NCBI GenBank assembly: GCA_947625475.1
Contig: CANQOL010000003.1
Span: 65,134-129,133 of the forward strand
Direction of reading: 5' to 3'
Source of the DNA: an uncultured Acetatifactor sp.
GTDB lineage: Bacteria > Bacillota > Clostridia > Lachnospirales > Lachnospiraceae
DNA: 64,000 nt
In this document: positions 16,277 to 62,611 of the stretch, piece after piece
Layout: the number at the start of each line of letters is the position of its first letter
How positions within the stretch are numbered: the stretch's first letter is position 1
Notes under the pieces: generated by a model
The model's input: only the letters and a program-made list of their open reading frames with translations
Databases searched by the model: none
What the model was told of the DNA's origin: nothing
Program-made: the position numbers and the translations under genes

Positions 16277-16373
16277 GGCTGTATCCACTCTCCTTTTGGC
16301 AGCCTGATTGCTGCCGTACAGAGAATAAAATAGCACACTCTTTGGAAAAAGACAAGATTCATAAATTGCCCGC

Positions 16374-16402
16374 TTGACAGGGGGCATATTTTTGGCTATA
16401 AT
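16374..16402 (+). promoter_or_regulatory. Sigma-A-type promoter (TTGACA, 17 nt spacer, TATAAT) reading toward the adhesin gene.
   Basis: Exact consensus -35 at 16374-16379 and -10 at 16397-16402 with a 17-nt spacer. Confidence 0.5.
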
Positions 16403-16434
16403 CAGTTCACACAGGTCAGTGATGTGAAGATCTG

Positions 16435-16488
16435 CCTGTTCCCGCAAATCGGCGGGAAACAGGATCTTCGGCGTTTCGCCGGTATTTT
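16435..16488 (+). promoter_or_regulatory. Leader RNA hairpins (possible attenuator or riboswitch expression platform) in the ~350-nt 5' UTR of the adhesin gene.
   Basis: An 11-bp stem CCTGTTCCCGC/GCGGGAAACAGG is followed by a second short GC hairpin (CGGCG-TTTC-GCCGG) and a U-tract (TATTTT). Confidence 0.3.
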
Positions 16489-23162: not shown

Positions 23163-23165
23163 GAA

Positions 23166-26889: not shown

Positions 26890-27545
26890 GATATTACAGT
26901 AAATAAATTTTAGTTATGGTTTTATTTTATAATTTTTTTAATATATAAACATTATTTCGGATTTTTTACTGCCGGGGCGGGACGAAAAAGGAGGGAAAAG
27001 AGTGCCAGATGGGACATTCGGCGGCGAATTCAAGAAAAACTCTTGTATAAAAACGATAGATATGGTAATATATTCCAGAGAATTCAAGGGCATAATGGTG
27101 TACCACCCGATGAGGCTGCAACCTCATCGGGCAAGGATGGTAACAGGGCTACCACACGATACAGACAAGCGTCTGCGATACACACATGTATCATTATAGG
27201 GCAATTTGCCCCAAATTACAATGATTTTATGTGGAAAAGCGGCGCGGGTCTGAGCCTTCGTTGTTGTATAACGGCAAGGTGCATGGTGTGGACGCATACC
27301 GGCACCTTGTTCTTGATTTCTCACCGGGGAGGGAGGCCTGCTTTTTGGCCCTCCCGGTTTTCCCCGTGTGAGAAGTCGGAGTTTGAGAGAACTGCGGCTG
27401 TGGTTGGTCTGCGGTTCTCTTTTCTTTTTCTCCGCATTGGGGGAATTTGCCGGGCGGAGGTCTCCGATTCTCAAGTCTCTACTTTGCATCGGCCGGGAGA
27501 GCCGAAAAGGGCGCCCGGCACAATTCTCAGAAGGAGGAAAAGGAC

Positions 27546-29216
27546 ATGAGAAAGAGAAACTGGAAAAGGCTGCCTGCCCTCTTGGGAGCGGGGATACTGG
27601 CGCTGTCCGGTACGCTGGGGGCATCCGCCGCAGAGCTGAAGGATCTTTTTGATCCGGAGTACTATGCGGATACCTACGCGGACGTGGAGAGCGCCTACGG
27701 CCACGACGCGGATGCCCTGTGGAAGCATTACCAGGAACACGGCATGCAGGAGGGGCGAAATGCCTGCCCATACTTTGATGTGCGGTATTACAGGGAGCAC
27801 AACGGAGATCTGGAGGAAGCCTATGGGGACGACTGGAGCGCCTACTATGAGCATTTTTTGGAGCATGGGATTTTGGAGGGGCGCAAGGGGTCGGAGAACG
27901 GCTTTGACGCGAAGGACTACCTGAGCCGGTATGCGGATCTGCAGGAGACGATCGGGGAGGATCCGGCGGCCCTGTTTGAGCATTATATCGAGCACGGCTA
28001 CAAGGAGGGAAGGGACGGGAAGCCCGAGCCCACACCTGCACCCGCGCCTGTGGTGAGTGTACCCCAGACCCCGGCAGCGGAGCCGGAGAATACGGCGGAA
28101 CCGGAGGCAACAGAAGTGCCAGAAGTGACGTCGGACCCCACTTCGGAACCGCAGCCGACGGAAACGGCTGCTCCTGTGCCGACTTCGGCACCACAGGAAT
28201 CTGATTTCATTCCTTGGTCGGAGGCGGGACTTGAAGATCATGTGATGGATTGGCAGGATGACAATTTGGAAGCGGCAATGCGTCAGATTACTGGAATTAA
28301 AGATCGGGATATTATGCTCAGTGACGTATGGGAAGAAGAAATATTAGGACTGGCTGCAAAAAAGATTACAAATATCAGTGCGTTATCTGAATTGAAAAAT
28401 CTGAAACGGTTGGAGCTAATTAGTAATCAGATTAGTGATATTAGCGCCTTGTCTGGCTTGGTAAATTTGGAGTGGCTGGATCTCTCAGGAAATCAGATCA
28501 GTGATATTAGTGCATTGTCAGGACTAACAAATCTAAAAGATGGGTTGCGTTTGAGCTGGAATAAACAGATTAGTGATATCAGTGCACTGTCAGGTTTAAC
28601 AAAACTGATAAGTTTAGAACTGGAAGATAATCAGATCAGCGATATTAGTGCTTTGGCAGGGCTGACAAATCTTCAAGTTTTGGAATTGAATTATAATCAA
28701 ATTAGTGATATCAGCGCACTATCAGGCATGACAAAGCTGGGATATTTGTCCTTATCCGGCAATCGAGTTAGTGACATCAGTACACTGTCAGATATGACAA
28801 ATTTGTATTCTTTAGCATTAGGAGGGAACAATTTCAGCGACATCAGCGCACTGTCTGGCTTGAAAGGATTATCCACCTTGTATTTGGGAAATGATCAGAT
28901 TCACGATATCAGTGTATTAGCGGGACTGACAGATCTGGAACATTTGGAGTTATGCGGTACACAAGTCAGCGATATTAATGCACTGGCCGGATTGACAAAG
29001 ATGGATATGTTGGTTATGTCTTCTAATCCGATGCTTAGTGACATCAGTGCACTGTCAGAAATGAAAAACCTCTATTATTTGGATATAAGTTCTAATCAGA
29101 TTAGAGATATCAGTCCTTTGTCTGGTTTGGAGAATTTGTACACGGTGTTTATTTACGGGAATCCTATCACAGACTATTCTCCGGTAGATCATGTATCGAA
29201 TGTCTACAAAGATTAA
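27546..29216 (+). CDS. Secreted leucine-rich-repeat (internalin-like) protein with N-terminal ~40-aa repeats and a Pro/Thr/Glu linker.
   Basis: Signal peptide is MRKRNWKRLPALLGAGILALSGTLGASAAE. A ~40-aa repeat x3 reads FDxxYYxxxxxDLxxAxGxDxxAxxxHYxEHGxxEGR. There are at least 14 22-residue LRRs (LxxLxxLxLxxNQISDISALSGL). The RBS GAAGGAGG precedes the start. Confidence 0.65.
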   Translation: MRKRNWKRLPALLGAGILALSGTLGASAAELKDLFDPEYYADTYADVESAYGHDADALWKHYQEHGMQEGRNACPYFDVRYYREHNGDLEEAYGDDWSAYYEHFLEHGILEGRKGSENGFDAKDYLSRYADLQETIGEDPAALFEHYIEHGYKEGRDGKPEPTPAPAPVVSVPQTPAAEPENTAEPEATEVPEVTSDPTSEPQPTETAAPVPTSAPQESDFIPWSEAGLEDHVMDWQDDNLEAAMRQITGIKDRDIMLSDVWEEEILGLAAKKITNISALSELKNLKRLELISNQISDISALSGLVNLEWLDLSGNQISDISALSGLTNLKDGLRLSWNKQISDISALSGLTKLISLELEDNQISDISALAGLTNLQVLELNYNQISDISALSGMTKLGYLSLSGNRVSDISTLSDMTNLYSLALGGNNFSDISALSGLKGLSTLYLGNDQIHDISVLAGLTDLEHLELCGTQVSDINALAGLTKMDMLVMSSNPMLSDISALSEMKNLYYLDISSNQIRDISPLSGLENLYTVFIYGNPITDYSPVDHVSNVYKD

Positions 29217-40123: not shown

Positions 40124-40263
40124 ATTAGAAAAAGTCTTGCCATGAGGACGGGAGTGTTTTATAATTACATTGTTATGTGTCCACGGATGGCCGGCGGCCG
40201 CCCGGGCGGGAGAGACCATTCTAAGGGAAACAAACGGCACATAAAATGTGCAGGAGGTGTGAA

Positions 40264-41073
40264 ATGAAAAAGAGAATAGGAATCCTTTTGGCGGCCTGCT
40301 GCGTGTCCCTGGCGGCATGCGGGAAGGGCGGCACGGTAAACGAGGGCGACCAGGTGAACGGGAGCAATCCGGTGCAGGAGAGCGTCCAGACACCCCAGGT
40401 GAGCAGCCAGGAACCGGAGGAGAGCGTCCAGGCGCCCGAAGAGAGCAGCCAGGAACCGGAGGAAAGCTCCCAGGCACCGGAGGAAGACAGCCAGCCGGAT
40501 GAATCCCAGTTTCCGGAGGGCCTCCCCTCTGTGGATGTGCAGAGCATGACCCAGGAGGAGCTGCAGAGCCTGGCGGATGGCATGTCTGAGGAAGAGTTCT
40601 GGATGTGGCTTTCCACTCTGGACAGCGAAGATCTGGACTATGTGATGGAGAATTATGCCACTGTCACCGAAGATCTGCCGGTGGGAGAAGAGCCGGAGCA
40701 GGGGGAGGAAGACGCCCAGGCGTCCGAGGAAGACAGCCAGTCGGATGAGTTCCAGCTTCCGGAGGGCCTCCCCTCTGTGGATGTGCAGAGCATGACCCCG
40801 GAGGAACTGCAGAGCCTGGCGGACAGCATGTCTGAGGAAGAATTCTGGATGTGGTTTTCTACTCTGGACAGCGAGGACATGGACTATCTGATGGAGAATT
40901 ATGCCACTGTCACCGGCGGTCTGCTGGAGGGAGAAGAGCTGGAGCAGTGGGAGGAAGAGAACGGCGTCACCACCTCCGCCCACTGGGACTGGGACGAGGA
41001 AAATGAGCAGTGGGTGCTGGTGGAGGACGCCCCGGAGGACGGCGGGGAAGGCCAGGAGCCCTCGGCGGAATAA
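40264..41073 (+). CDS. Acidic lipoprotein with two ~90-aa internal repeats.
   Basis: The lipobox is LAACG. The unit ...EESSQAPEE(D)SQxDExQxPEGLPSVDVQSMTxEELQSLADxMSEEEFWMWxSTLDSEDxDYxMENYATVT occurs twice. Confidence 0.5.
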   Translation: MKKRIGILLAACCVSLAACGKGGTVNEGDQVNGSNPVQESVQTPQVSSQEPEESVQAPEESSQEPEESSQAPEEDSQPDESQFPEGLPSVDVQSMTQEELQSLADGMSEEEFWMWLSTLDSEDLDYVMENYATVTEDLPVGEEPEQGEEDAQASEEDSQSDEFQLPEGLPSVDVQSMTPEELQSLADSMSEEEFWMWFSTLDSEDMDYLMENYATVTGGLLEGEELEQWEEENGVTTSAHWDWDEENEQWVLVEDAPEDGGEGQEPSAE

Positions 41074-41241: not shown

Positions 41242-41865
41242 ATGACGATTGATACGGAGAATCTGCTGGACAGCATCTGGAAGAGCTTTGACAGGATCGC
41301 ATACATAAAGCCGGAGGAAATTCCGGAGATAGATCTTTATATGGATCAGGTCACCACCTTTATGGAGAGCAGGCTTAAGTCCTCCACCCGTTATCCGGGG
41401 GAGGATAAGATCCTGACAAAGACCATGATCAACAATTATGCGAAGAATGATCTGCTGCCCCCTCCTGTGAAGAAGAAGTACACCAAGGAGCATGTGCTTT
41501 TGCTGATCCTGATCTACTACTACAAGGGCGTGATGACCATCGGCGACATCCAAACGCTCCTGCAGCCCATCACGGAGCGCTTCTTCCAGAACGGGCAGGA
41601 GTTTAATCTGCAGAGCATCTACGAGGAAGTGTTCGGGCTGGAGGAAGCCCAGGTGGAGGTTCTGAAGCAGGACGTGAAGGAAAAGTACCGCCAGTCCATG
41701 GAAACCTTCCGGGACGCCCCGGCGGAGGACGCGGAATTCCTGCGCAGGTTTTCCTTTATCTGTCTGCTCAGCTTCGATGTATATGTGAAAAAGCTCCTGA
41801 TCGAGAAGATGATCGACGGGATCGGCGGGGGGAAAGAAAAGGATCGGAAAAAGAAAAAAGAATAA
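41242..41865 (+). CDS. DUF1836-like protein.
   Basis: The N-terminus ...IPEIDLYMDQVTTFMESRL...TKTMINNYAKNDLLPPPVKKKYTKEHVLLLILIYYYK resembles the DUF1836 family (recollection; needs HMM confirmation). Confidence 0.4.
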   Translation: MTIDTENLLDSIWKSFDRIAYIKPEEIPEIDLYMDQVTTFMESRLKSSTRYPGEDKILTKTMINNYAKNDLLPPPVKKKYTKEHVLLLILIYYYKGVMTIGDIQTLLQPITERFFQNGQEFNLQSIYEEVFGLEEAQVEVLKQDVKEKYRQSMETFRDAPAEDAEFLRRFSFICLLSFDVYVKKLLIEKMIDGIGGGKEKDRKKKKE

Positions 41866-41996
41866 CTAGAAAGCTGTGTACGGAACGGATCATTTCCGGT
41901 TTAGGAAAAAATGTGGTTCTACATCAGCCCGGCTGCGGCGGGATCTTGTAGAACCATCTGTTTGCGGGGACACAGGGTGGGAGGTATTACCGTATT

Positions 41997-43376
41997 ATGA
42001 ATCTGCGTATGCCCGTCCTTGACAAAGTGTTGGAATCCGCCGCCCAATCTGCCGGCTTTAACGGGCAGGAAATTGTTGTGCTGCATGTCAACCACTGTAT
42101 GGACAATTCCTTTTATTTCAGCGAGGCGCTGAAAAAGGTTTTTTATGATGTTGTATTTATAGGCGTACCCTACAATGACAGGGAAGTGGAGAAGGGTTAC
42201 AGTTTCCGGTATTATTACGGGAAAAACAAAAAAGGGGTTTATGAGCTGTACCGGGGCAATTCTCTCTTTGAGACGGCCCGGTGCGGTTTTGTGGAGGCCG
42301 TGGAGCTGCTGCTGGAGCAGGCCATAGAGCAGGATATCCTTCCGCTGCTGGAGGCAGGGAAAAAGCTGCTGATCATCGAGGACGGAGGCTACCACTACGG
42401 CGTGGTGAAGCGCATGGCGGAGAGCCATCCCGTTCTGCGCACCCACATCCTCGGCAGTGTGGAGCAGACCACCTCCGGGACCTCCAAGTGCCTGAAAAGC
42501 GGGAAGGGCAGCGGGTTTTCCTATCCCTGCACCAGCATTGCCCGCTCCGACATTAAGATGTATGTGGAGTCCCGGTTTATCGGGAACCGGGTGGTGGAGG
42601 AACTGAGCAGCTTCCTGTACTCGGCCAACACCTTCCTGGATTTTCACAATGTTCTGATTCTGGGCTACGGCATTGTGGGGCGCCGGGTTGCCAGGAATCT
42701 CCAGCAGAAGCAGTGCCGGATCACGGTGTACGATACGGACGGGAATGTCTCCCGGCTGGCCCGGCAGGAGGGCTTTGCCACAGCCTCCCAAATTACGCCG
42801 GAGCACTTCCCCCACAGCACCGTTGTGATCGGAAACGCGGGAAAGCCCTCCTTCACGGAGGAGATGCTGGAGGCGTTTTTCCGGGGCCGGGCGGATACCC
42901 TGTATCTGGCCAGCTCATCCTCCCAGGACCGGGAGTTTAAAACCTTTCTGAACCTGGCGGAGGGGAAGGCGCCCCTCCCTGAGGGGGCGGCTCTCCTGGA
43001 GGCGCTGACGGAAAAATATTTCACCGCCTACCGTTTCTCCTGGGAGGGAAGGGAGAAGACCGTCTATCTGATTGCCCAGGGAATGCCGGTCAATTTCTAC
43101 CGCAAGGATGTGATCAGCCTGACATACAGTATTATCGACCTGATTTTTGCCGAGATGCTTTCCATGGGGCTGACCCTGTGCGCCGCCTCCGGCCTGGAGA
43201 ACAGGCTTTACCTGCTGGGGCGGGACGACGGCTTTATGCCCTTTATCTCCGAGGAGGAGCTGACCCGGCTCTGGTTTGCCAAGTATGATCTCAGCGGTGA
43301 GGGCGGTATCTCCCAGATCCTGGATCCCCATCCTCTGGGCGGATATCTGCGGGAAAAACTGATGAAGGAGTCGTGA
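41997..43376 (+). CDS. Rossmann-fold NAD-binding protein, S-adenosyl-L-homocysteine-hydrolase-like (divergent); function unknown.
   Basis: VLILGYGIVGRRVARNLQQKQCRITVYDTDGNVSRLARQEGF matches the AdoHcyase NAD-domain pattern (GYGDVGKGxA...V.E.DP..AL.A..GF). The substrate-domain ETTTG-like motif is degenerate (EQTTSGTSK). Confidence 0.35.
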   Translation: MNLRMPVLDKVLESAAQSAGFNGQEIVVLHVNHCMDNSFYFSEALKKVFYDVVFIGVPYNDREVEKGYSFRYYYGKNKKGVYELYRGNSLFETARCGFVEAVELLLEQAIEQDILPLLEAGKKLLIIEDGGYHYGVVKRMAESHPVLRTHILGSVEQTTSGTSKCLKSGKGSGFSYPCTSIARSDIKMYVESRFIGNRVVEELSSFLYSANTFLDFHNVLILGYGIVGRRVARNLQQKQCRITVYDTDGNVSRLARQEGFATASQITPEHFPHSTVVIGNAGKPSFTEEMLEAFFRGRADTLYLASSSSQDREFKTFLNLAEGKAPLPEGAALLEALTEKYFTAYRFSWEGREKTVYLIAQGMPVNFYRKDVISLTYSIIDLIFAEMLSMGLTLCAASGLENRLYLLGRDDGFMPFISEEELTRLWFAKYDLSGEGGISQILDPHPLGGYLREKLMKES

Positions 43377-43380
43377 GGCT

Positions 43381-45162
43381 ATGGAAGAACGCATCGTAAA
43401 GAACACATTCGGCCGTTTCTTTATGCCCACCCTTACGGCCTCGGTTACCCTGTCCGTTATTTCCATGACGGATCTGATTATTGCGGGAAGGTTTGTGGGG
43501 GAGGAAGCGCTGACCTCCATTTCCCTGGCCCTCCCGGTGATCATTTTCGTTCAGATTATCGGGGCCTTTCTGGGGACAGGCGGCGCCATTGTCCTGTCCA
43601 CACGGCTGGGGGAGGGAAAGCTGGAGGAATGCAGCCGGATTTTCTCCTGCGCCATGGCGGGGGCCCTGCTGATCGGGATTCTGGTTTCCGTGGCGGGAAC
43701 CGTCTTTCTGGAGCCCATTATCCTGCTGTGCGGCGGAAGCTACGGGGAAGTGATGGAGGGGGCCAAGGCGTACATGGGGACCCTGTTTTACGGGATGACC
43801 TTTATGATCCTTTCCCCCATTATGATGACCTATCTGCGCAATGACAACGAGCAGCAGTATTCCATGGTCTGCGTGGTGACCAGCGGACTGTTCAACATTG
43901 TGTTTTCCTACAGCTTCGCCGTGCTTTTCGGGCTCGGGATCCGGGGGATCGCCCTGGCTACGGTCCTCTCCCAGCTTCTGACCTGCATCCTGGGCTCCCT
44001 GAAGCTGTTCCGCAAAAACCGGACCTTCCATCTGGTGAAGTTCCGCCTGGGGGGCGGGCTTCTGTTTTCGATTCTGCGGCCCGGCTTCCCGGTAGCCGCC
44101 ATCTTCCTTTCCCAGGTGATCCTGACCATGGTGATCAACAAGGTGCTGATGAGCGCCGGGGGAAGCGAGGGAGTGGCCGTCTACGCGGTGATCAAATATC
44201 TGATCAATTTCATGTACGCCCTTTTCGACGGAGTGACGGGGGCCATCCAGCCCATGCTGGGGATTTATTTCGGGGAGCGGGAGAGAAGCAATATCCGCCA
44301 CACCGTAAAGTATTCCCTGGCGGCCATGCTGGCGATCTCCGGGGGCATGTTCCTGGCCATGGAGCTTCTCGGCACGCCCCTGTGCCGGCTTTTCGGCGTG
44401 GAGAGCGGTTCCCTGACCGGGCTTACCGTCCACGCCATGCGCATTGAGGCCATCTGCTGCCTCACGGCCGGGTGCATCACCTATGTGAACGCCTTTTACC
44501 GCTGCACGGGCAATGCGTCCGTGTCCTTTGCCCTGAGCATCGCGGACAATTTCGTGTTTCCCATTTTTTGGGTGCTGGTGCTTGCCCGGGGGCTGGGGCT
44601 CGGAGTCTCCGGCGTCTGGTGGGGCCTGGCGGCGGGGGGCCTGAGCACGCTGCTGTGCTGGTTTGTCTACTGCCTGAAGGAGAAGCGGGGCTTCCTGCTT
44701 CTGCGGGAGGAACAGTTTGTGCGGCCGGAGGGGGAGTACCATGTGATCCACCCGGCCACCTCGGAGCAGATGGAGATCCTTCTCCCGGAGGTGGAGGAAG
44801 TCTGCGACTCCATGGATATCCCCATGAAAAAACAGTATTACATATCTTTGGCCATTGAAGAGCTGGTGGCCAATGTGGTGGGGCTGGCCCAGACCGACGC
44901 AAGGCGGAAGAAAAAAAAGGAGTATTATGTGGATATCCGGATCTCTCCCCGGGAAAACGGGGAGGTGGAGCTGCGGATCCGGGACAATCTGACGGAGTTC
45001 AATCCGGGCGAGGTCGCCACGGACGATATGAGCTCCCTGCTGCAGGGAGGCGGCGAGAGCGCCGTGAATACCCTGGGAATCGGCATGGTGAAAAAGATAG
45101 CAAGCGAGTACAGCTACAAGAGAACCATCGGCTTCAACAATTTTTCGGTGATTCTGCCCTGA
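43381..45162 (+). CDS. MATE-family transporter fused to a C-terminal RsbW/SpoIIAB-like GHKL ATPase (HATPase_c_2) domain.
   Basis: Residues 1-450 have 12 TM segments with the MATE N-terminal pattern. The C-terminal ~140 aa read ISLAIEELVANVVGLAQ...YYVDIRISPRENGEVELRIRDNLTEFNPGEV...GGGESAVNTLGIGMVKKIAS (N-box, G1 and G2-like). Confidence 0.55.
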   Translation: MEERIVKNTFGRFFMPTLTASVTLSVISMTDLIIAGRFVGEEALTSISLALPVIIFVQIIGAFLGTGGAIVLSTRLGEGKLEECSRIFSCAMAGALLIGILVSVAGTVFLEPIILLCGGSYGEVMEGAKAYMGTLFYGMTFMILSPIMMTYLRNDNEQQYSMVCVVTSGLFNIVFSYSFAVLFGLGIRGIALATVLSQLLTCILGSLKLFRKNRTFHLVKFRLGGGLLFSILRPGFPVAAIFLSQVILTMVINKVLMSAGGSEGVAVYAVIKYLINFMYALFDGVTGAIQPMLGIYFGERERSNIRHTVKYSLAAMLAISGGMFLAMELLGTPLCRLFGVESGSLTGLTVHAMRIEAICCLTAGCITYVNAFYRCTGNASVSFALSIADNFVFPIFWVLVLARGLGLGVSGVWWGLAAGGLSTLLCWFVYCLKEKRGFLLLREEQFVRPEGEYHVIHPATSEQMEILLPEVEEVCDSMDIPMKKQYYISLAIEELVANVVGLAQTDARRKKKKEYYVDIRISPRENGEVELRIRDNLTEFNPGEVATDDMSSLLQGGGESAVNTLGIGMVKKIASEYSYKRTIGFNNFSVILP

Positions 45163-45208
45163 TCCGGCAGCCGGCCTCGCAAAACAGAATAAAGGGAGGT
45201 ATTATATC

Positions 45209-47212
45209 ATGAAGGATGTATTCAAAGTGTTTACGGATCGGAAAGCGCTGATCCGCATGGTGATCTCCGGCGTTCTCTTCCTGGCGGTGGCGGCCCCTTT
45301 TAAGGCCATGCTGTCGCTGGTTCCCGGCGTGACGGAGGTGCGGCCCGCCAATATGATCCCGCCGGTTCTGGGAATCCTGTGGGGCCCTGCGGCGGCCTGG
45401 GGCATCGCCATCGCCAACGCCATCTCGGACATTGTGGTTTCCCACTCCGCCTTTCGGGTCTGGTTCCCGGGGATGATTATCAATTTCTTCTTCGCCTACC
45501 TGCCCTACCGGATGTGGTATTCCCTGAACATCAACAAGAAGGGTTCCATCCGGCCCAAGCTGAGCCGGGTATCCGAGATCCTTCGCTTCATTTATATCTG
45601 TCTCATGGATTCCCTGGTGACGACGGTGCTGCTGGCCCTGCTCTTTGAGATTTTAGGGTTCCAGTCCTACGCCTCCTCGGTGCTGCTGCTGTTTTTCAAC
45701 AACTTTGATTTTGCCATTATCCTGGGAGTCCCGGTGATCCTGCTTTTGACCAACTCCAAGCGGACCGGCCTGTGGGTGCCCAGCGAGTGTTCCGCGCTGC
45801 CGAAGGAGGTGCTGACGGACAAAAAGCATATTCAAAAGCAGCGGTTTTTCGACGGCCTGTTTGCGGTCATAGGGGCCGTGGGCATTCTGTACTATTTCGC
45901 CACAGCCTTCGGCGGCTTTGTATTTCCCCATACCGTGGAGCTGGTGATTTTTGTCCTGTTCCTGCTCTTTGAGCTTTCCTACCTGTTAAAGCCCTTAAAT
46001 CCGGTGAACGACCAGTCGGAGGATGTGGAAATCCGCGGACTTTCCATCCGGGCCAAGGTTATCATCGGCTTCCTGATGCTGTCCGTCTTCTTTGTGGTCA
46101 TCATAGGAGTAGCCACCTATGTCTCCCAGAGCGGCGTGGTCGCCAGCCAGAAGGATCTGTGGCAGTATATTTACACGGTGGTGGGTATTTCCCTGAATAT
46201 TATTTTCCTGATTTCCCTGGTATTCCTGAAATACGTAGAGTTGAAGATCACGGCGCCCCTGGAAAAGCTCTCCCGTCTGGTAAAGCTCTTCGCCGCCAGA
46301 GACCATCAGGCCAATGCGGACGACGGCCAGATCGTGAAGGAGAGCCTGTCCATCAGCACCGGGGACGAGATCGAGGAGCTCTCCGGATCCTTTGCCAAGA
46401 TGATGACGGATATCGATCAGTATGTGGTCAACCTGGCCGCGGTGACGGCGGAGAAGGAGAGGATCGGGGCCGAGCTGAACGTGGCCACCCAGATCCAGGC
46501 CTCCATGCTGCCCTGTATTTTCCCGGCCTTCCCGGACCGGCCCGAGTTTGACATTTATGCCACCATGGATCCGGCCAAGGAGGTGGGAGGCGACTTCTAC
46601 GACTTCTTTATGGTGGATGAGAGACATGTGGCCATCGTGGTGGCGGACGTCTCCGGCAAGGGCGTGCCGGCGGCCCTGTTCATGGTCATCGGCAAGACAC
46701 TGATCAAGGACCACACCCAGCTGGGCTCCAGCCTGGGCCAGGTTTTCGCGGAGGTGAACGATCTGCTGTGCGAGGCCAACAGCGAGGGCCTGTTTATCAC
46801 GGCCTTTGAGGGCGTGCTGGATCTGGTGACGGGAGAATTTGTCTTTGTCAATGCGGGACATGAGACCCCCTTCATCTCCAAGGCGGGAGGGGCCTTCGAG
46901 CCCTACAAGATCCGCCCCGGCTTCGTGCTGGCGGGCATGGAGGGAATGCACTACAATGTGAGCACAGTCCAGCTGGAGCCGGGCGACCGGATTTTCCAGT
47001 ACACGGACGGCGTCCCGGAGGCCACAGACAGCAAGGAGGAACTCTACGGCATGGAGCGCCTGGAGAAGGTGCTCTCCGCAAATGCGGATAAGAACCCGAC
47101 GGAGCTGCTGCCTCAGGTGAAGGCGGACATCGACGCCTTTGTGGGAGAGGCTCCCCAGTTTGACGATATTACCATGCTCTGCCTGGAGTATAAGCAGAGG
47201 ATGACGGAGTAA
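45209..47212 (+). CDS. Polytopic membrane protein with a C-terminal PP2C-family Ser/Thr phosphatase domain (SpoIIE/RsbU-like).
   Basis: The N-terminal ~330 aa have 8-10 TM segments. The phosphatase metal-binding motifs are GGDFYDF and VVADVSGKGVPAALFM. Confidence 0.65.
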   Translation: MKDVFKVFTDRKALIRMVISGVLFLAVAAPFKAMLSLVPGVTEVRPANMIPPVLGILWGPAAAWGIAIANAISDIVVSHSAFRVWFPGMIINFFFAYLPYRMWYSLNINKKGSIRPKLSRVSEILRFIYICLMDSLVTTVLLALLFEILGFQSYASSVLLLFFNNFDFAIILGVPVILLLTNSKRTGLWVPSECSALPKEVLTDKKHIQKQRFFDGLFAVIGAVGILYYFATAFGGFVFPHTVELVIFVLFLLFELSYLLKPLNPVNDQSEDVEIRGLSIRAKVIIGFLMLSVFFVVIIGVATYVSQSGVVASQKDLWQYIYTVVGISLNIIFLISLVFLKYVELKITAPLEKLSRLVKLFAARDHQANADDGQIVKESLSISTGDEIEELSGSFAKMMTDIDQYVVNLAAVTAEKERIGAELNVATQIQASMLPCIFPAFPDRPEFDIYATMDPAKEVGGDFYDFFMVDERHVAIVVADVSGKGVPAALFMVIGKTLIKDHTQLGSSLGQVFAEVNDLLCEANSEGLFITAFEGVLDLVTGEFVFVNAGHETPFISKAGGAFEPYKIRPGFVLAGMEGMHYNVSTVQLEPGDRIFQYTDGVPEATDSKEELYGMERLEKVLSANADKNPTELLPQVKADIDAFVGEAPQFDDITMLCLEYKQRMTE

Positions 47213-47271
47213 GGCCCCAGGGGAGGGCCCGTCCCGGCTGCAGTCTTATGATACGAGGAGGAATACGAAAG

Positions 47272-49131
47272 ATGAACAGGAGCTTTTGTCCGCCCCGCAG
47301 ATTTTTGAGTACGGCCCTTTTGATGCTGGCGCTGTGGGCCTTTGCAGGCTTTGCACAGGTGCAGGCCGCCCAGACGGGTGGGCTGCCGGGCCCGGGGGAG
47401 GCGTCTTCCCAGGAGGATACGGCCTCTTTCCCGGAGGATACGGAGAGTTTCTTTGACTGCAGCGTGACGGACGTGTACGGGGTGAGGATACACGCCTATC
47501 TCTCGCCCCAGGATGGGATTTACTATCTGTTTGTGCCCCACTCGGTGGGAATCTCCACGATGGAGCTGTGCTGCGAGGGGGAGATCCGCGGTGCCTCCAA
47601 GGGAAGCTGGGATCCCGCAGAGGGCGTTCTGAGGGGCGCCTTTCAAAAGAGCGGGGACCAGGTGGCCCTGGAGCTTGACGGGCAGAGCATTCAGGTAAAG
47701 GTGCTGCAGTCCGACCTCCCCAGCCTGGAGCTTCAGCTTAAGGATACCACCCTGGCCCAGGTCCAGAAGGACAAAAATATCAAGTACAAGGGGAATACCC
47801 TGTATCTGACCAGCGCGGAGGGCCCCCTGCTGCTGGAGGAAAAGGAGAGCGTGGAATTTAAGGGCAGGGGCAACAGCTCCTGGACCCAGTACGACAAAAA
47901 GGGCTATCAGATTAAATTTGGGGAGAAAATCTCCCTGCTGGGCATGGAGGCAGCCAAGAAGTGGGTTCTGCTGGCCAACGCCTCCGACGACAGCATGATC
48001 CGCAACAGGATCGCCATGGATCTGGCGGAAGGGCTGGAGATGCCCTACACTTCTCAGTTCCGGTATGTGGACCTGTGGATCGACGGAGACTACCAGGGCA
48101 CCTATCTGGCGGGAGAGAAGGTGGAGATCGGCTCAGGCCGCATCCCTCTGAAGGATGAAAAGGGAGTGGTGATGGAGCAGGACTACGCCTTCTATGAGGA
48201 AGAGGATTACTGGATTTACGATGAGCTCCTGGACACCCATATGAGTCTGAAGGAGTCGGTGGAGGAGGAGGATCCCGAAAAGATCCGGGAGGCTATCGCT
48301 TCCTTCCAGGAGGCTTTGGATGAGTTTCTCACCTATCTGTACCGCACCCCCCAGGATCAGGTGACGCTGGATGAGCTGTCCGCCCGGATCGACGTGGATT
48401 CCTTTGCCAAGTATTATCTGGCGGTGGAATATACTCTGAACCGGGAGGCCAATCACACCAGCTATTACTGGTATCGGGACGGGGAGGGGGATGTGCTGCA
48501 CCTGGGACCTGTGTGGGATTTTGACACCTGTATGGGCAACGAGGACCTGGGAGCCGGCGAGTACTATGCGCATCTTTACAATTATATGATGAACCGGCTG
48601 CTTGCCTGCCCGGCCTTCTCCGGGAGAGTGGAGGAAATCCGCCGGCTCTATGACGGGGCCTTTCGGAATATGCCGGAGGGGGTGAAGGCCTATGAGAAGG
48701 AGATCGCTTCCTCAGCCTACATGAATTACATCCGCTGGAATACCCTGGGCGGAGTCAACCCCAAGGGCTTTGGCGATTTCGCGGCCACCTATGAGGATTC
48801 GGTGGAAAAGCTGGAGGACTGGCTGAAGGAGCGCTACAGGGAGTTTAAGGTGCAAAAGCCCCAGATTGCAGTGGCGGTGAGCGGGGATCAGACCCAGATG
48901 ACCGTCTGCTGCGGCCTGCAGTCGGATAACCTTGTGGCGGCGGTCTGGAGCGGCCGGGAGCCGGAGGATATTCAGTGGTATCCGGCGGAGAGGACGGAGA
49001 ACGGCGCCAGCGTGTTCACCGTGGATTTTGGCCGGTATGAGCCGGACGGAATGTATCATATCTATGTCAACGGCCCTGAGAATGAGGGCCTGGAAGAGAG
49101 GACGACCTATTACCGGTTCCCGCAGGAATAA
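47272..49131 (+). CDS. Secreted CotH-family (atypical kinase-like) protein.
   Basis: A signal peptide is present. ...KKGYQIKFGEK...SMIRNRIAMDLAEGLEMPYTSQFRYVDLWIDGDYQGTYLAGEKVE matches the CotH core. The RBS AGGAGG precedes the start. Confidence 0.55.
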   Translation: MNRSFCPPRRFLSTALLMLALWAFAGFAQVQAAQTGGLPGPGEASSQEDTASFPEDTESFFDCSVTDVYGVRIHAYLSPQDGIYYLFVPHSVGISTMELCCEGEIRGASKGSWDPAEGVLRGAFQKSGDQVALELDGQSIQVKVLQSDLPSLELQLKDTTLAQVQKDKNIKYKGNTLYLTSAEGPLLLEEKESVEFKGRGNSSWTQYDKKGYQIKFGEKISLLGMEAAKKWVLLANASDDSMIRNRIAMDLAEGLEMPYTSQFRYVDLWIDGDYQGTYLAGEKVEIGSGRIPLKDEKGVVMEQDYAFYEEEDYWIYDELLDTHMSLKESVEEEDPEKIREAIASFQEALDEFLTYLYRTPQDQVTLDELSARIDVDSFAKYYLAVEYTLNREANHTSYYWYRDGEGDVLHLGPVWDFDTCMGNEDLGAGEYYAHLYNYMMNRLLACPAFSGRVEEIRRLYDGAFRNMPEGVKAYEKEIASSAYMNYIRWNTLGGVNPKGFGDFAATYEDSVEKLEDWLKERYREFKVQKPQIAVAVSGDQTQMTVCCGLQSDNLVAAVWSGREPEDIQWYPAERTENGASVFTVDFGRYEPDGMYHIYVNGPENEGLEERTTYYRFPQE

Positions 49132-57877: not shown

Positions 57878-57930
57878 TAATATGGAATGCAGAAGGCTTC
57901 ATTCATGAATAGAAATGTGGTATATTTATG

Positions 57931-57943
57931 TTTGGTATAATAC
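57931..57943 (+). promoter_or_regulatory. Extended -10 promoter element TGgTATAAT for the unknown two-gene cassette.
   Basis: Read from the sequence, 16 nt upstream of the RBS GAGGAGG. Confidence 0.4.
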
Positions 57944-57956
57944 GAGGAGGAAGAGT

Positions 57957-58466
57957 ATGGATAAAGAAAAGATCAAAGAAGATTTGAGCATATGTTATTT
58001 AAAGACTATTGCCGCTATAAATGGTATTGCTATGGAAAGAATAGAACATGATGAAGATAGTGTTGATGTTGTAATAAAAAAAATAATATATTTAAAAAAT
58101 GGTGGAAAGTTTAATTCACAGATAAGTGTACAGTTAAAAGCAACAGCTTCTAGTTCTCAATATAATATTAGCAATACTGAGATTTCATATTTGTTAAAGG
58201 CGAAAAACTATAATGACTTATGTGCACCAGCATCTATGCCAAGTATATTAGCTTTATTAATTTTGCCAGAAAATGAAACTGAATGGATTAGATGGAGTTC
58301 TGAAGAATTAATGATAAAAGGGAAAATGTTTTGGATTTCGTTTCAAGGTAAGGAGGAAACAAAGAATGTTAGTCATATTACTGTAAAAATACCTAAAGAA
58401 AATGAGTTAAATGCAATAACGATAGAAACTTTAATACAAAAGGTGGCAGAGGAGGGAATGATATGA
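57957..58466 (+). CDS. Small protein (169 aa) of unknown function, DUF4365-like (tentative). It is the first gene of a two-gene cassette adjacent to the type I R-M.
   Basis: MDKEKIKEDLSICYLKTIAAINGIAMERIEHDEDSVDVVIKK... resembles the N-terminal pattern of DUF4365 proteins as I recall it. Its stop overlaps the next start (ATGA). Composition is AT-rich. Confidence 0.4.
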   Translation: MDKEKIKEDLSICYLKTIAAINGIAMERIEHDEDSVDVVIKKIIYLKNGGKFNSQISVQLKATASSSQYNISNTEISYLLKAKNYNDLCAPASMPSILALLILPENETEWIRWSSEELMIKGKMFWISFQGKEETKNVSHITVKIPKENELNAITIETLIQKVAEEGMI

Positions 58467-59605
58467 TATATTCTATAAATTTTGTAGATATGACATTGAA
58501 GTTAAATCCCTTGGCAGTAGCAAAATATTTAATAGATACTCAGTGGAAAGAGTATTTGGTAAAACGAAATGATATAAAAATTTTTCAATATGAAAAAGAT
58601 GATACATTTGAACAGGTTACGGTACCGTTAGAGAAAAATTTGCGGGATTATAAACAAATAATGTACGAAACTATTTGTAAAATAGCATATATTGAAAAGA
58701 AATCTGTGGAGCAACAAATGTTATATTTACTTAATCCAAATACAGATATTTTAAAAATACGTCTTGATAGAAAAGAAGTAGAATCTGGGAATATAATGTT
58801 TGACGATGCTATACAATTGTATGATAATGCAAAAAAACTATTAGCAGCGACTGCATTAGATATTATAAATCCCAAAAGGATACATTGGGGAAGAATTGAT
58901 GATTCGGTTCAACAATTTTTGACACGATGCAGATTTGGTCAAACAGAAATTGGAAGCTATGTTGTATCTGTTGTGTGTCCGTTTGCAGAATTATCAGAGG
59001 CAGAAGGTTATAAACAGTTAAGCATATTTTCTGATGAGGAACGATGTGCTAATTCACTTACAAGAAAAGTTACAAATAGATTGATGTCTAATATTGCAAT
59101 AATTAAAAAAAAGGTAGACGAGGGTAATTTGGAATCGTTAGTCAATTATGAAGATGGTATTAGCTCAAATTTTTATGAAGCGTTAAATGGTATGGATTTA
59201 TACTCTGAAAATACGAGCGTGGAATTTATAGCAGAGTGGTCTCCTATAGTTAAAAGTAATAGAAGTCCAATCGAAAAGGTAATGATTACAAATGACTATT
59301 ATGAGCCTCTGCAAAGTGTAATATCAAAAATAAAAGAATGTACTAATGAAAGAACGGAAATAATTGGTAAGATTAAAGACCTGAAAGCGGCACCAATTAT
59401 CGATAAGCGCAAGTTTGGAACTGTGGTTGTAGTTTATATTAGCGGTAATGGCAAGGCGAAGTCCGTTAAAGTAAAATTAGATAAAGAAGATTATGATAAT
59501 GCAGTCATGGCTCATCAATATGGAAAAACAGTAAGATTGATTGGCGAGTTGAAAGAGGCACCAAGAGCAATGATGGAAAATACTTTATTTAGTGTAATTG
59601 AGTAA
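58463..59605 (+). CDS. Hypothetical protein (380 aa) with no recognisable motifs, translationally coupled to the upstream DUF4365-like gene.
   Basis: There is a 4-bp start/stop overlap. It shares the AT-rich composition of the island. No NTPase, nuclease or HTH motifs were seen by eye. Confidence 0.4.
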   Translation: MIYSINFVDMTLKLNPLAVAKYLIDTQWKEYLVKRNDIKIFQYEKDDTFEQVTVPLEKNLRDYKQIMYETICKIAYIEKKSVEQQMLYLLNPNTDILKIRLDRKEVESGNIMFDDAIQLYDNAKKLLAATALDIINPKRIHWGRIDDSVQQFLTRCRFGQTEIGSYVVSVVCPFAELSEAEGYKQLSIFSDEERCANSLTRKVTNRLMSNIAIIKKKVDEGNLESLVNYEDGISSNFYEALNGMDLYSENTSVEFIAEWSPIVKSNRSPIEKVMITNDYYEPLQSVISKIKECTNERTEIIGKIKDLKAAPIIDKRKFGTVVVVYISGNGKAKSVKVKLDKEDYDNAVMAHQYGKTVRLIGELKEAPRAMMENTLFSVIE

Positions 59606-59654
59606 TAACAAGTAAAGTAGCAATGTATTTACATGGATAATTGGAGAAAAGACA

Positions 59655-61478
59655 ATGGACAACAAAAGCATAAAAAAACTGGAAGCTGATCTTTGGGAAT
59701 CTGCAGATCTGCTCCGTGCAGGATCAAAGCTGACCTCTCAGCAGTATTGTATGCCGGTACTCGGTTTGCTATTTCTGAGGTATGCATATAGCAGATTTAA
59801 GAAAGTGGAAGAAGAGATCTTGAAGGACAGACCAGTTAGGAATGGCCGTGTAATGCCTGTGGAAGCTTCTGACTTCGCTGAGAAGAGCGCGCTGTATCTT
59901 CCGAAGGAAGCACATTATTCCTATCTGGTGAATCTGCCGGAGGATATCAAGGCTGCAAATATCGTGACTGAAAATGGGCAGCAGATGAATAGTCTGGGCG
60001 AAGTTGTGAATCATGCAATGGAGTTGGTAGAGGCTCAATCTGAACAGTTGGCCGGCGTTCTTCCGAAAGAGTACACCAATTTTGCGGATGATCTGCTGGC
60101 AGAGTTATTGCGTATTTTTAACAATAATGCTCTTGATGATGTAGGCGGCGATGTGATTGGACGCATCTATGAATATTTTCTCAGTAAGTTTGCACCGGCG
60201 GTGGCTTCTGATGACGGTGTGTTCTTTACACCGAAGTCTCTGGTAAAAATGATTGTAAATATTTTGGAACCGACTTCCGGTGTTCTGGTGGACATTGCCT
60301 GCGGCAGCGGCGGTATGTTTGTTCAATCCGGCGATTTTGTCAATAGCAAGGGAATGTCGGCCAATAAGTCAATGACGTTTTACGGGCAGGAGAAGGTTGA
60401 ATATAATGCGCAGCTCTGTCTCATGAATATGGCGGTTCATGGACTGACCGGTGTAATTAAGTCTGGAAATGAAGCCAATACTTTCTATAATGACGCTCAT
60501 AATCTAGCTGGGTGTTGTGATTATGTGATGGCGAATCCGCCTTTCAATGTGGACAAAGTAAAGGCAGAAGCGGCTCAAAATGCAGGGAGATTGCCGTTTG
60601 GCCTGCCGGGTGTGAACAAGGCAAATGAAGTTGGTAATGCAAACTATTTGTGGATTTCTTATTTTTATGCGTATCTTAATGAAACCGGAAGAGCCGGTTT
60701 TGTTATGGCATCTTCTGCAACAGATAGCCAAGGTAAAGACAAGGACATTAGAGAGAGACTGATTAAGACCGGTCATGTGGATGTGATGATCAGTGTTGGA
60801 AATAATTTCTTTTATACAAAGAGCCTGCCTTGTAGCTTATGGTTTTTCGATAAGGGAAAAGCAGAGAATCTGAAGGATAAGGTACTGTTTATTGATGCCA
60901 GAAATTATTATACTGTTGTGGATCGCACCCTGAATGAATGGAGCGACTGGCAGTTGAAAAACATGAATGCCATTGTGTGGCTGTATCGTGGAGAAACTGA
61001 CAAGTACCAACAGCTTATAGAGGAATACCATGCTGTTTTGGGAAAGGGTGATTTTGAAGAAATCCTTCATGTCCAGGAGGAGCGCATTAAGACACTGAGA
61101 ATCGAAACCAAGGCAACTGTAGATGCTGCGGCAAAGAAGGATAAGAAGAGAATCCAGGCAGAATTTGATGAGAAAGTAGCCGAGCAGGAAGAACAGCTCA
61201 CGATAGCTAAGGAAGCAGTATGGCTATACAGTAAATTTGGCGATGGAGAGTATCAAGATATTCCTGGTTTCTGCAAGATTTCTAATCGGGATGAAATTGA
61301 AGAAAAAGGCTGGTCATTGACTCCAGGTGCATATGTTGGTGTTGCTCCGATCGAGGATGACGGTGTTGATTTCCATGAACGTATGGATGAGATCCATGAA
61401 GAATTATTGAAGCTTCAGGAGGAGAGTAACCGACTGATGGATACCATCTCAAAGAACTTAAAGGAGATGGGGATATGA
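59655..61478 (+). CDS. hsdM: Type I restriction-modification system DNA methyltransferase subunit HsdM.
   Basis: The HsdM N-domain reads LWESADLLRAGSKLTSQQYCMPVLGLLFLRY. The SAM-binding motif is VDIACGSGGMF. The catalytic motif NPPF is present (VMANPPFNVD). Confidence 0.85.
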   Translation: MDNKSIKKLEADLWESADLLRAGSKLTSQQYCMPVLGLLFLRYAYSRFKKVEEEILKDRPVRNGRVMPVEASDFAEKSALYLPKEAHYSYLVNLPEDIKAANIVTENGQQMNSLGEVVNHAMELVEAQSEQLAGVLPKEYTNFADDLLAELLRIFNNNALDDVGGDVIGRIYEYFLSKFAPAVASDDGVFFTPKSLVKMIVNILEPTSGVLVDIACGSGGMFVQSGDFVNSKGMSANKSMTFYGQEKVEYNAQLCLMNMAVHGLTGVIKSGNEANTFYNDAHNLAGCCDYVMANPPFNVDKVKAEAAQNAGRLPFGLPGVNKANEVGNANYLWISYFYAYLNETGRAGFVMASSATDSQGKDKDIRERLIKTGHVDVMISVGNNFFYTKSLPCSLWFFDKGKAENLKDKVLFIDARNYYTVVDRTLNEWSDWQLKNMNAIVWLYRGETDKYQQLIEEYHAVLGKGDFEEILHVQEERIKTLRIETKATVDAAAKKDKKRIQAEFDEKVAEQEEQLTIAKEAVWLYSKFGDGEYQDIPGFCKISNRDEIEEKGWSLTPGAYVGVAPIEDDGVDFHERMDEIHEELLKLQEESNRLMDTISKNLKEMGI

Positions 61479-62611
61479 GTTGGGAATATGTGACATTGGA
61501 TATGCTTGGAGAAGTTTCAAGAGGAAAATCAAAACATAGACCAAGAAATGATGCGTCTCTGTTTGGCGGCAAATATCCATTTATACAAACAGCTGATGTT
61601 AAAGATGCACCTTTTTACATCACATCGTATAGTGACACTTATAATGAAACAGGTCTCGCGCAAAGCAAGCTATGGAAGAAGGGAACTCTTTGTATTACTA
61701 TTGCTGCAAATATTGCAGATACTGCAATACTTGATATTGATGCGTGTTTTCCAGATAGCGTAATGGGCTTTATACCTTATGAAGAAATCTCGGATGTAAG
61801 ATTTGTCAAGTATAGTTTTGATATGTTGCAACGGGATATGCAGCAAATATCACAGGGAACAGCTCAGGATAATCTCTCGTGGAAGAAACTATCTACAATA
61901 AGGTTTCCGAAACCTCCGATTGAAGTGCAAAGGAAGATAGCAGATGCTTTAGTTTCATATGAGGATTTAATTGAGAACAATCAGAAACAAATCAAATTAC
62001 TGGAGGAAGTAGCGCAGAGACTGTATAAAGAATGGTTTGTGGATCTGCGTTTTCCGGGATATGAAAACGTGGAAATTGTTGATGGTGTGCCAGAGGGATG
62101 GAAGTTAGTAGGACTAAATAAATTAGCACCTATTCTTACAGGGAAAAAAGATGCTAATTATGGAACAAGAGATGGGAAATATCTATTTTTTACTTGCGCA
62201 CAAGAACCAATAAAAGCCCCAAGTTATTCTTTTGACTGTAGTGCGGTAATACTCGCAGGAAATGGTGATTTTAATGTAAAGCTTTATCGTGGGAAATTTG
62301 AAGCATATCAGAGAACGTATGTATTTAATCCAACTGATGAAAAGAATTTATATTTAATATTCCACGCAGTGAGAGAAAATATGAGAAATTTGTTTCAAGG
62401 AGCCAGCGGCTCCACAATTAAATTTCTTACGAAAGGAATGCTTGAAAATATAAAAGTATTTCAGCCTTCTAAAGAAATATTGACGTTCTTTAATAAATAT
62501 AGTGAGTCAATTCAGAAAAAAATAGAAGCTTTAAAACAACAGATAATTTTAGCAGCAGAAGCCCGCGACCGCTTACTTCCAAAGCTTATGTCAGGCAAAA
62601 TAGAACTGTGA
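61475..62611 (+). CDS. hsdS: Type I R-M specificity subunit HsdS (two target-recognition domains).
   Basis: Its start overlaps the hsdM stop. Length is 378 aa. Conserved central and C-terminal helical repeats are present (...LLEEVAQRLYKEWFVDLRFPG... / ...AAEARDRLLPKLMSGKIEL). Confidence 0.75.
   Translation: MSWEYVTLDMLGEVSRGKSKHRPRNDASLFGGKYPFIQTADVKDAPFYITSYSDTYNETGLAQSKLWKKGTLCITIAANIADTAILDIDACFPDSVMGFIPYEEISDVRFVKYSFDMLQRDMQQISQGTAQDNLSWKKLSTIRFPKPPIEVQRKIADALVSYEDLIENNQKQIKLLEEVAQRLYKEWFVDLRFPGYENVEIVDGVPEGWKLVGLNKLAPILTGKKDANYGTRDGKYLFFTCAQEPIKAPSYSFDCSAVILAGNGDFNVKLYRGKFEAYQRTYVFNPTDEKNLYLIFHAVRENMRNLFQGASGSTIKFLTKGMLENIKVFQPSKEILTFFNKYSESIQKKIEALKQQIILAAEARDRLLPKLMSGKIEL

Follow-up and report, generated by a model that had tools for sequence, protein, structure and literature searches.

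Partner-switching modules are textbook regulators of sigma factors, and to our knowledge only a few cases are known in which such modules regulate enzymes post-translationally. The Bacillus systems RsbU/RsbP–RsbV–RsbW and SpoIIE–SpoIIAA–SpoIIAB have the same parts list as the gene cassette that is the subject of this report: a PP2C phosphatase, a STAS protein and an HATPase_c_2 kinase. We analysed a 64,000-nucleotide stretch of DNA from an uncultured Acetatifactor sp. of the Lachnospiraceae (assembly GCA_947625475.1, contig CANQOL010000003.1, positions 65,134 to 129,133; the whole stretch is called the window), in which a MATE transporter carrying a C-terminal HATPase_c_2 domain is encoded next to a membrane-bound PP2C phosphatase. 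Comparison with related loci suggests, with a probability that we put at about one in two, that these proteins derive from a partner switch whose output is the MATE pump itself, reached through the fused HATPase_c_2 domain.

The cassette differs from the Bacillus systems in several respects. It has no sigma factor; it contains two HATPase_c_2 paralogs, one of which is fused to the MATE pump and lacks the G1 glycine and most G2 glycines; the input domain of its phosphatase is a homolog of an energy-coupling factor (ECF) S-component, QueT; and a gene for a metabolic enzyme lies inside the operon. The window itself, moreover, lacks both the STAS gene and the canonical kinase. Two RsbW-like proteins with separate tasks have been described in the Mycobacterium smegmatis SigF system, where RsbW1 binds the STAS antagonist RsfB without kinase activity and RsbW2 is the sole RsfB kinase (PMC7693655). 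The mycobacterial binder is, however, soluble and holds a sigma factor, whereas the presumed binder in the cassette is the C-terminal domain of a transporter, and the split of functions is here suggested by sequence motifs. In the Sia and Hsb partner switches, the STAS protein releases outputs other than sigma factors. The outputs of Pseudomonas aeruginosa SiaABCD and HptB–HsbR–HsbA, Vibrio fischeri SypE–SypA and Anabaena HenR–All4160 are diguanylate cyclases, FlgM or glycosyltransferases, and none of these systems has a transporter-fused HATPase_c_2 domain or an ECF S-component sensor on its phosphatase. Partner switches with non-sigma outputs are established (bioRxiv 10.64898/2026.04.08.717354).

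Regulation of a transporter by a STAS protein also has a precedent, in MlaB–MlaF (PMC7367683). As in the model proposed here, the STAS component of MlaB–MlaFEDB and of the SLC26/SulP transporters contacts and regulates a membrane transporter, but in Mla it binds the ABC ATPase and in SLC26/SulP it is fused to the transporter, and no kinase/phosphatase cycle is known to be involved; in the cassette, it is the transporter that carries the kinase-like partner, and the STAS protein is separate and phosphorylatable. A further point of comparison is ClbM, a MATE pump of the DinF-type fold that, like the pump of the cassette, is encoded beside enzyme genes (in the cassette these vary by clade and include NRPS, radical SAM and YcaO neighbours). 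ClbM exports the colibactin precursor. Cluster-associated MATE pumps such as ClbM are not known to carry a signalling domain in the cytoplasm or to come with partner-switch genes of their own. Full-text literature searches for MatE with HATPase_c_2, QueT with SpoIIE, and MATE/anti-sigma fusions returned no description of the architecture or of the cassette. The domain pair is already recorded in databases, one family member being labelled 'Na+-driven multidrug efflux pump/anti-sigma regulatory factor' by JGI.

The core of the locus in the window consists of only three genes (41997-47212), P460, the MATE~HATPase_c_2 fusion and the QueT-PP2C phosphatase, with the following features:

41997-43376, + strand: P460, an NAD-domain protein with the fold of S-adenosylhomocysteine hydrolase (SAHH), conserved first gene of the three-gene core (family profile)
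43381-45162, + strand: MATE~HATPase_c_2 fusion, open reading frame (ORF) of 593 aa
43381-44736, + strand: MATE (DinF/PfMATE-type) exporter core with 12 transmembrane (TM) helices, aa 1-452 (Pfam MatE, Foldseek)
44737-45162, + strand: C-terminal HATPase_c_2-like domain of the RsbW/SpoIIAB fold, aa 453-593 (degenerate ATP-lid motifs)
45209-47212, + strand: membrane PP2C, ORF of 667 aa, 46 nucleotides after the fusion ORF
45209-45778, + strand: QueT-like ECF S-component domain, aa ~1-190, proposed ligand-sensing input (PF06177 homology)
45779-46618, + strand: extra TM helices and HAMP-like linker, aa ~191-470 (hydropathy, partial matches to HAMP models)
46619-47212, + strand: SpoIIE/RsbU-type PP2C domain (aa 471-661) and C-terminus (Pfam SpoIIE)

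The P460 stop codon lies 4 nucleotides ahead of the start codon of the fusion gene, and good Shine-Dalgarno sequences precede both the 593-aa and the 667-aa ORFs. An earlier reading of these letters made without database searches (the sequence-only reading) had given the coordinates of the two ORFs and the 46-nucleotide gap exactly as found here, and had described a MATE transporter fused to a kinase-type domain. The fusion was confirmed by profile searches. The MATE core matched Pfam MatE in two stretches (E=1.1e-32) and scored 137.2 bits against TIGR00797, just under the cut-off of 147.4, while residues 458-582 matched HATPase_c_2 with 33.7 bits (gathering cut-off, 27.4); with the SpoIIE match of the phosphatase described below, all three hidden Markov model searches proposed in that reading (MatE, HATPase_c_2, SpoIIE) gave matches in Pfam. 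An AlphaFold model of the 593-aa protein had a mean local confidence (pLDDT) of 84 and a predicted TM-score (pTM) of 0.79, and in Foldseek searches with this model target-normalised TM-scores were 0.82-0.87 for PfMATE, DinF-BH and VcmN and 0.76 for ClbM. By its modelled fold, the core is a complete DinF-type small-molecule exporter, of the group that includes ClbM. Identity as a flippase for lipid-linked sugars (MurJ/Wzx) was considered and rejected, as MurJ and WzxE ranked clearly below the drug and metabolite MATEs in Foldseek.

The sequence-only reading had also raised the concern that the fusion might be a frameshift artefact joining two genes. This was not the case. Homologs of the window's clade comprised ~60 protein clusters, all of ~590 aa and with 45-70% identity, from Blautia, Lachnospiraceae, Oscillospiraceae and 'Eubacteriales' metagenome-assembled genomes (MAGs), and almost all carried both Pfam domains. 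For the wider family, 1.84 billion cluster representatives were screened with a profile built from the C-terminal domain only, yielding 466 hits at E<=1e-10; among the best 150 of these, 78 (representatives at 50% identity) were MATE fusions of full length that had the domain at their very C-terminal end. An identical 593-aa protein was present, with the same neighbours and gene order, on 12 independent contigs from different samples. A frameshift or assembly artefact is therefore rejected, the architecture being shared by the ~60 clusters of the clade and at least 78 distant representatives.

Gene order was compared in 27 loci from GTDB species representatives and several metagenome contigs. 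The full cassette of Lachnospiraceae and Oscillospiraceae has the order STAS, P460, MATE~HATPase_c_2, QueT-like-HAMP-PP2C and small RsbW-like kinase. The gene immediately before the fusion gene was P460 in 26 of the 27 evaluable loci, and the one immediately after it was the phosphatase gene in every evaluable locus but one (L029). The small kinase was encoded as a standalone protein after the phosphatase in 12 loci and was fused to the phosphatase C-terminus in 9, and the STAS gene (~100 aa) adjoined P460 on its upstream side in 14 loci and lay no more than 6 kb away in another 3. The sequence Y-x-S-S-A-G-L-R, which we take to correspond to the phosphorylated-serine motif of SpoIIAA and RsbV, was invariant in the 21 distinct STAS sequences, and, judged by eye, the STAS protein seems to vary far less from clade to clade than the pump. 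In more distant clades of MATE~HATPase_c_2 fusions (~25% identity), the STAS, PP2C and kinase genes are kept, with P460 replaced by other enzymes; the loci recorded there were:

L036, 6014-13758: formyltransferase, LPG_synthase_C and radical SAM genes, beside ABC exporters with a C39 peptidase
L039, 1-10500: nonribosomal peptide synthetase (NRPS) and adenylating enzyme
L043, 760-6229: DJ-1, ThiJ-like and thiamine-diphosphate (TPP) enzymes, flanked by two STAS genes
L041, 6914-11952: HAMP-PP2C and small kinase

This combination of a constant chassis of signalling genes and pump with a variable enzyme slot suggests that the pump exports a metabolite produced locally, and that its export is regulated.

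The small HATPase_c_2 protein of these cassettes (135 aa) has canonical RsbW motifs: an N-box EExxxN (DExxxN in most PP2C-fused copies), a G1 box DxGxPY and a G2 box GGLGI, with the glycines all kept in 23 of 23 sequences. RsbW (6m36) aligns by sequence to one of these kinases. In the relatives, a conventional kinase is thus already part of the partner switch. The fused domain is a recognisable paralog of the small kinases (phmmer E about 1e-6), and its N-box residues E493, E494 and N498 were invariant in all 60 clade members. Its G1 box, D535-N-L-T-E-F in the window and D-N/D-(L/A)-T-E-F in the clade, retains the Asp in every sequence; the +2 position was Leu in 42 members, Ala in 18 and Gly in none of the 60, and thus departs from D-x-G-x-G. 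Where the small kinases have 'GG' in G2, the fused domain has an invariant Asn and, in 46 of 60 sequences, a Glu after it (N-(usually E)-L-G), and the glycine-rich lid is reduced to one invariant glycine, the central G566. The ATP-lid region had low pLDDT in the AlphaFold model, and the domain ends in a private invariant tail, R-T-x-G-x-N-x-F. Against the PDB, the profile of the fused-domain family had no hit at E<=10 and a single-sequence search gave spurious hits only. Because sequence comparison gave no usable match, a fold search was needed; it matched the domain to SpoIIAB, RsbW and UsfX, the class of kinases that partner STAS proteins.

Loss of the ATP site is graded across the wider family. 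Among the 78 fusions, whose alignment was checked to be in register, the Mg-binding Asn and the G1 Gly were both kept in 13 and both lost in 33; 31, like the window's domain, kept the Asn alone, and 1 kept the Gly alone. Overall the Asn was lost in 34 and the G1 Gly in 64 of 78, while the EE pair and the G1 Asp were nearly invariant. Retained and conserved, with a decaying ATP site and an intact paralogous kinase beside it, the fused domain is most simply a binding module, and it is probably a STAS-docking output on the pump rather than a kinase. The claim of the sequence-only reading that it is the kinase of a partner switch holds for the HATPase_c_2 fold; the missing G1 glycine (0/60) and the separate canonical kinase of the relatives speak against the assigned function. 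The series of 13 kinase-like, 31 intermediate and 33 fully degenerate domains, with 1 other, offers a natural series in which to follow how a kinase may turn into a pseudokinase docking module.

The phosphatase proved to be as had been proposed, an 8-10-TM domain fused to a SpoIIE/RsbU-like PP2C. Residues 471-661 matched SpoIIE (E=3.6e-45), the metal-binding motifs GGDFYD(460), DVSGKG(480), TDG(599) and FDDIT(651) were all intact, and roughly 9-10 hydrophobic segments were counted in residues 1-350. The description of both membrane domains as transporter-like could be refined for this protein. Its N-terminal domain is, as judged by homology, a divergent relative of QueT-type ECF S-components: it is 31-36% identical to standalone PF06177 ECF S-components (E down to 5e-20), and the Pfam QueT model was matched by 13 of 21 family members (best E=2.8e-9), although the window's own domain missed that model at E<=1. 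The homolog search with this region passed through a word prefilter and returned few full-length PP2C relatives. Hydropathy peaks follow the QueT-like domain at residues 213-260, 284-302 and 317-349; residues 311-430 partially match the HAMP-containing models SiaA, CtpM and NarQ, and the phosphatase of one distant relative gave a weak Pfam HAMP match. No ECF T or A genes, for the energising components with which QueT imports queuosine precursors, were found in the cassette, either in the window or at the relatives' loci, and the fusion of the domain to a HAMP-PP2C module speaks for sensing and not for transport. Identity with the Sia system was rejected, the SiaA equivalog NF038263 scoring 58.4 bits against a cut-off of 700 and covering the HAMP-PP2C part only.

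P460 falls in no Pfam family. A profile built from 52 P460 homologs matched adenosylhomocysteinases in the PDB with E=2e-14, spanning both the substrate and the NAD domains, while NCBIfam AdoHcyase models scored at most 51 bits against cut-offs of 275-512. Conserved motifs of the family are EDGGYH, VEQTTSGT (EQTTSGT), K187...E191 and GYGxVGR, and the consensus positions that we take to match the two catalytic histidines of SAHH are not conserved. By these comparisons, P460 shares the SAHH fold but is not an SAHH ortholog, and NAD and a nucleoside are its probable ligands. L045 and also L046 encode a long form (751 aa, with an N-terminal extension of ~270 aa without assignment). In L045 (4454-11308) it belongs to a four-gene set with a 1048-aa AAA_16/FGE-sulfatase protein, a cupin and a radical SAM enzyme, and no partner-switch genes are nearby; its position between the cupin and radical-SAM genes without signalling genes supports the view that P460 proteins are enzymes. 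The sequence-only reading had listed AdoHcyase-like, DUF1836 and CotH genes as flanking the pair. All three genes were found, and the AdoHcyase-like one, P460, is a tightly linked member of the cassette; the other two are not, and both were rejected as members of the module, since they accompany the core in the window's lineage only.

The window holds a reduced form of the cassette. Six-frame translation of all 64 kb was searched with phmmer and jackhmmer, using the cassette STAS proteins as seeds for the STAS search, and about 39 ORFs were scanned with Pfam; neither a STAS protein nor a small kinase was found, in keeping with the earlier statement that no STAS gene is visible in the cluster. 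The nearest relatives, L040 and L044 (~69% identity), also have no STAS gene within 10 kb or more but have kept the small kinase. The adjacent STAS gene is lost throughout this Blautia-like subclade and the small kinase only in the window's lineage, so that the absence of STAS is, on comparative grounds, a lineage-specific reduction of a normally complete partner-switching set. No sigma-factor gene was present among the window ORFs scanned or in the relatives' cassettes. The three genes of the window are intact with every family-invariant residue, and identity to the Blautia homolog is 67% in the C-terminal domain and 69% in the rest of the fusion protein; intact genes and an equally conserved C-terminal domain argue against decay. 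As a description, a membrane-embedded module of partner-switching type fits the locus.

In the model that we favour, the phosphorylation state of STAS would be set by the small kinase and the membrane PP2C, and a ligand bound to the ECF S-component-like domain would control PP2C activity through HAMP. Unphosphorylated STAS would dock on the degenerate HATPase_c_2 tail that the MATE pump carries at its cytoplasmic C-terminus, and so gate the export of a small molecule that the co-encoded enzyme, here P460, produces or modifies. The fused domain would play the part of the anti-sigma factor, the pump replacing sigma as the output. The topology is compatible, as MATE C-termini and HAMP-PP2C modules are both cytoplasmic. 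In the window's lineage, the STAS and kinase partners would be encoded in trans, or a simpler pair of PP2C and pump would operate. One may go further, though this extension is tentative and on balance doubtful, and picture a self-contained post-translational loop in which the enzyme (P460 here, radical-SAM, NRPS or TPP enzymes elsewhere) makes a molecule, the MATE pump exports it, the ECF-S-like domain of the phosphatase senses it outside (the cell's own or a competitor's version) and the state of STAS feeds back on the pump via the pseudokinase tail. Such a switch would work on the transporter as a valve of autocrine or quorum type and need no transcription factor.

Several observations weigh against a switch acting on the pump. 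The proposed circuit cannot be built from the window alone, as STAS and small kinase are absent within 64 kb, and seven of the compared loci have no STAS gene within 8 kb or more; L042 contains an orphan pump, and L003 lacks P460. STAS may bind the small kinase alone and not the fused domain. In the window's clade, moreover, the N-box Asn and the G1 Asp are invariant (60/60), with which ATP binding or residual kinase activity of the fused domain may be compatible, and 13 of the 78 fusions of the wider family have an N-box and a G1 box that look fully competent for kinase activity. These residues, together with a HATPase_c_2 match above threshold and a window lineage that has no other kinase nearby, would also suit the model of the sequence-only reading, in which the fused domain is an active serine kinase that phosphorylates a STAS protein encoded elsewhere and is modulated by transport. 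We consider this unlikely, however, because the G1 glycine is missing from all 60 clade members, the leading G2 glycines have become an invariant Asn and usually a Glu, the domain is kept in 33 of 78 relatives despite loss of both Asn and Gly, nearly all cassettes have an extra canonical RsbW-like kinase, and the fused-domain profile matches no solved kinase by sequence. Somewhat less probable still is that information flows the other way, the MATE protein acting as a transceptor that senses substrate or flux and whose conformation controls the sequestration of STAS or of the small kinase by the fused domain, with a target elsewhere such as a diguanylate cyclase or another enzyme. A GGDEF gene does lie directly upstream of STAS in L004, the apparent conservation of STAS across clades, judged by inspection, would fit multiple partners, and other partner switches have STAS proteins that release non-sigma outputs (bioRxiv 10.64898/2026.04.08.717354). 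Across the compared loci, however, no conserved extra output gene accompanies the cassette, the genes that vary are enzymes typical of metabolite synthesis, and the MATE core looks like a complete, ordinary exporter.

The window could also hold the decayed remnant of a switch, STAS and kinase having been lost, with the pump and the PP2C acting independently, the latter on other phospho-proteins, and the C-terminal domain vestigial or structural. The missing genes, the CotH gene at the kinase position and signs of decay in relatives (in L005/L040 a stop codon divides the PP2C, and L031 has a fragmented copy of the MATE fusion) agree with this. We nevertheless judge it improbable, since the three window genes are intact with all catalytic and family-invariant motifs, conservation of the C-terminal domain equals that of the remaining protein, and the same arrangement recurs on 12 contigs from different samples. 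Finally, the fold shared with SpoIIAB, RsbW and UsfX might point to a membrane-tethered anti-sigma factor, the fused domain holding an alternative sigma factor that STAS releases, as for SigB and SigF; this seems very improbable, as in the window and about 30 loci the cassette neither contains nor adjoins a sigma-factor gene, and the single one seen, FliA-like, is 7 kb away in L003 inside a chemotaxis/flagellar cluster. A reading as anti-phage defence was rejected, PADLOC giving no hits for any cassette protein.

The finding is notable at the level of the family; the window holds its most reduced form, for which the mechanism is inferential. If a partner switch does act on the pump, the paradigm would extend to direct control of membrane transport, through a widespread cassette of gut Firmicutes with an RsbW-like partner built into a MATE exporter and, in the same cassette, a phosphatase driven by a sensor domain of vitamin-transporter (ECF S-component) type. 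Hundreds of proteins annotated just as 'MATE efflux transporter' or 'ATP-binding protein' would gain a role, and the cassettes would indicate that Lachnospiraceae and Oscillospiraceae export metabolites not yet known, some of them encoded beside genes for RiPPs (ribosomally synthesized and post-translationally modified peptides), NRPS or radical SAM enzymes.

Some of the compared loci showed further features. Upstream of the P460 homolog in L040 (1734-8399) and L044 (1742-8487) are YcaO genes and small peptide ORFs, one weakly Bacteriocin_IIc-like, together with an AgrC-like HATPase_c_5 kinase and two LytTR response regulators; the window has DUF1836 where these loci carry the YcaO/LytTR genes. 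T-rich direct repeats (TTTTGTC...ATTGTC) in the ~100 nucleotides upstream of P460 are common to L040, L044 and L006. They may be LytTR sites, a hint of quorum-sensing control. In L003 (7596-9779) the fusion gene is preceded by a PTPS/QueD-like gene (6-pyruvoyl-tetrahydropterin synthase family), and the contig ends just after the fusion gene. The QueD family is used in queuosine synthesis, a curious neighbour given the QueT-like sensor on the phosphatase elsewhere. L031 (12050-12576) has the clade-1 MATE fusion gene only as fragments, between intact P460 and PP2C genes, and has in addition a distant (26%) MATE~HATPase_c_2 paralog and a STAS gene a few kb upstream. In L005/L040 (11755-13806; Blautia MAG) a stop codon interrupts the PP2C frame about 50 codons before its end.

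The core of the window is bordered by two further genes:

41242-41865: DUF1836 gene
47248-49131: CotH-kinase-family protein with an N-terminal signal/TM segment and a C-terminal GBS_Bsp-like repeat

The CotH family consists of atypical kinases, and this gene sits where relatives have the small RsbW-like kinase; functional replacement is unlikely, as the CotH protein is predicted to be extracytoplasmic. Between DUF1836 and P460, at 41914-41956, is an 11-bp perfect inverted repeat (GTGGTTCTACA / TGTAGAACCAT) around a GC-rich inner stem, with an RNA fold energy of -24.8 kcal/mol and a weak T-tract after it. The hairpin is not conserved in relatives; it may terminate DUF1836 or act as an operator or a regulatory hairpin. 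On the other side of DUF1836, 40246-41073 encodes a 275-aa acidic putative lipoprotein with an internal tandem duplication of ~90 aa (...PEGLPSVDVQSMT.EELQSLAD.MSEEEFWMW.STLDSED.DY.MENYATVT...), for which no significant Pfam family was found; one weak MgtE_N match was under threshold.

The wider window is ordinary chromosome, with genes for a sugar ABC transporter, amylase, glycogen-debranching enzyme, GroES/EL, BipA, DapA/B and UvrD, and no biosynthetic cluster among the ORFs scanned. At 16752-24098 is a pilus- or adhesin-like locus, in which a 2136-aa surface protein with a thioester domain (TED) and 11 SpaA-type prealbumin-fold repeats is followed by a sortase; a second, ordinary MATE gene lies just upstream of this adhesin locus on the minus strand (14906-16447). 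Just after groES/groEL, in a low-GC patch (~0.44-0.50, 26-30 kb), 27447-29216 encodes a 589-aa leucine-rich-repeat protein. A low-GC island at 57915-62611 (0.33-0.41 against ~0.58 elsewhere) carries genes for DUF4365, a 380-aa protein without assignment, HsdM and HsdS (type I restriction-modification), and was probably acquired horizontally.

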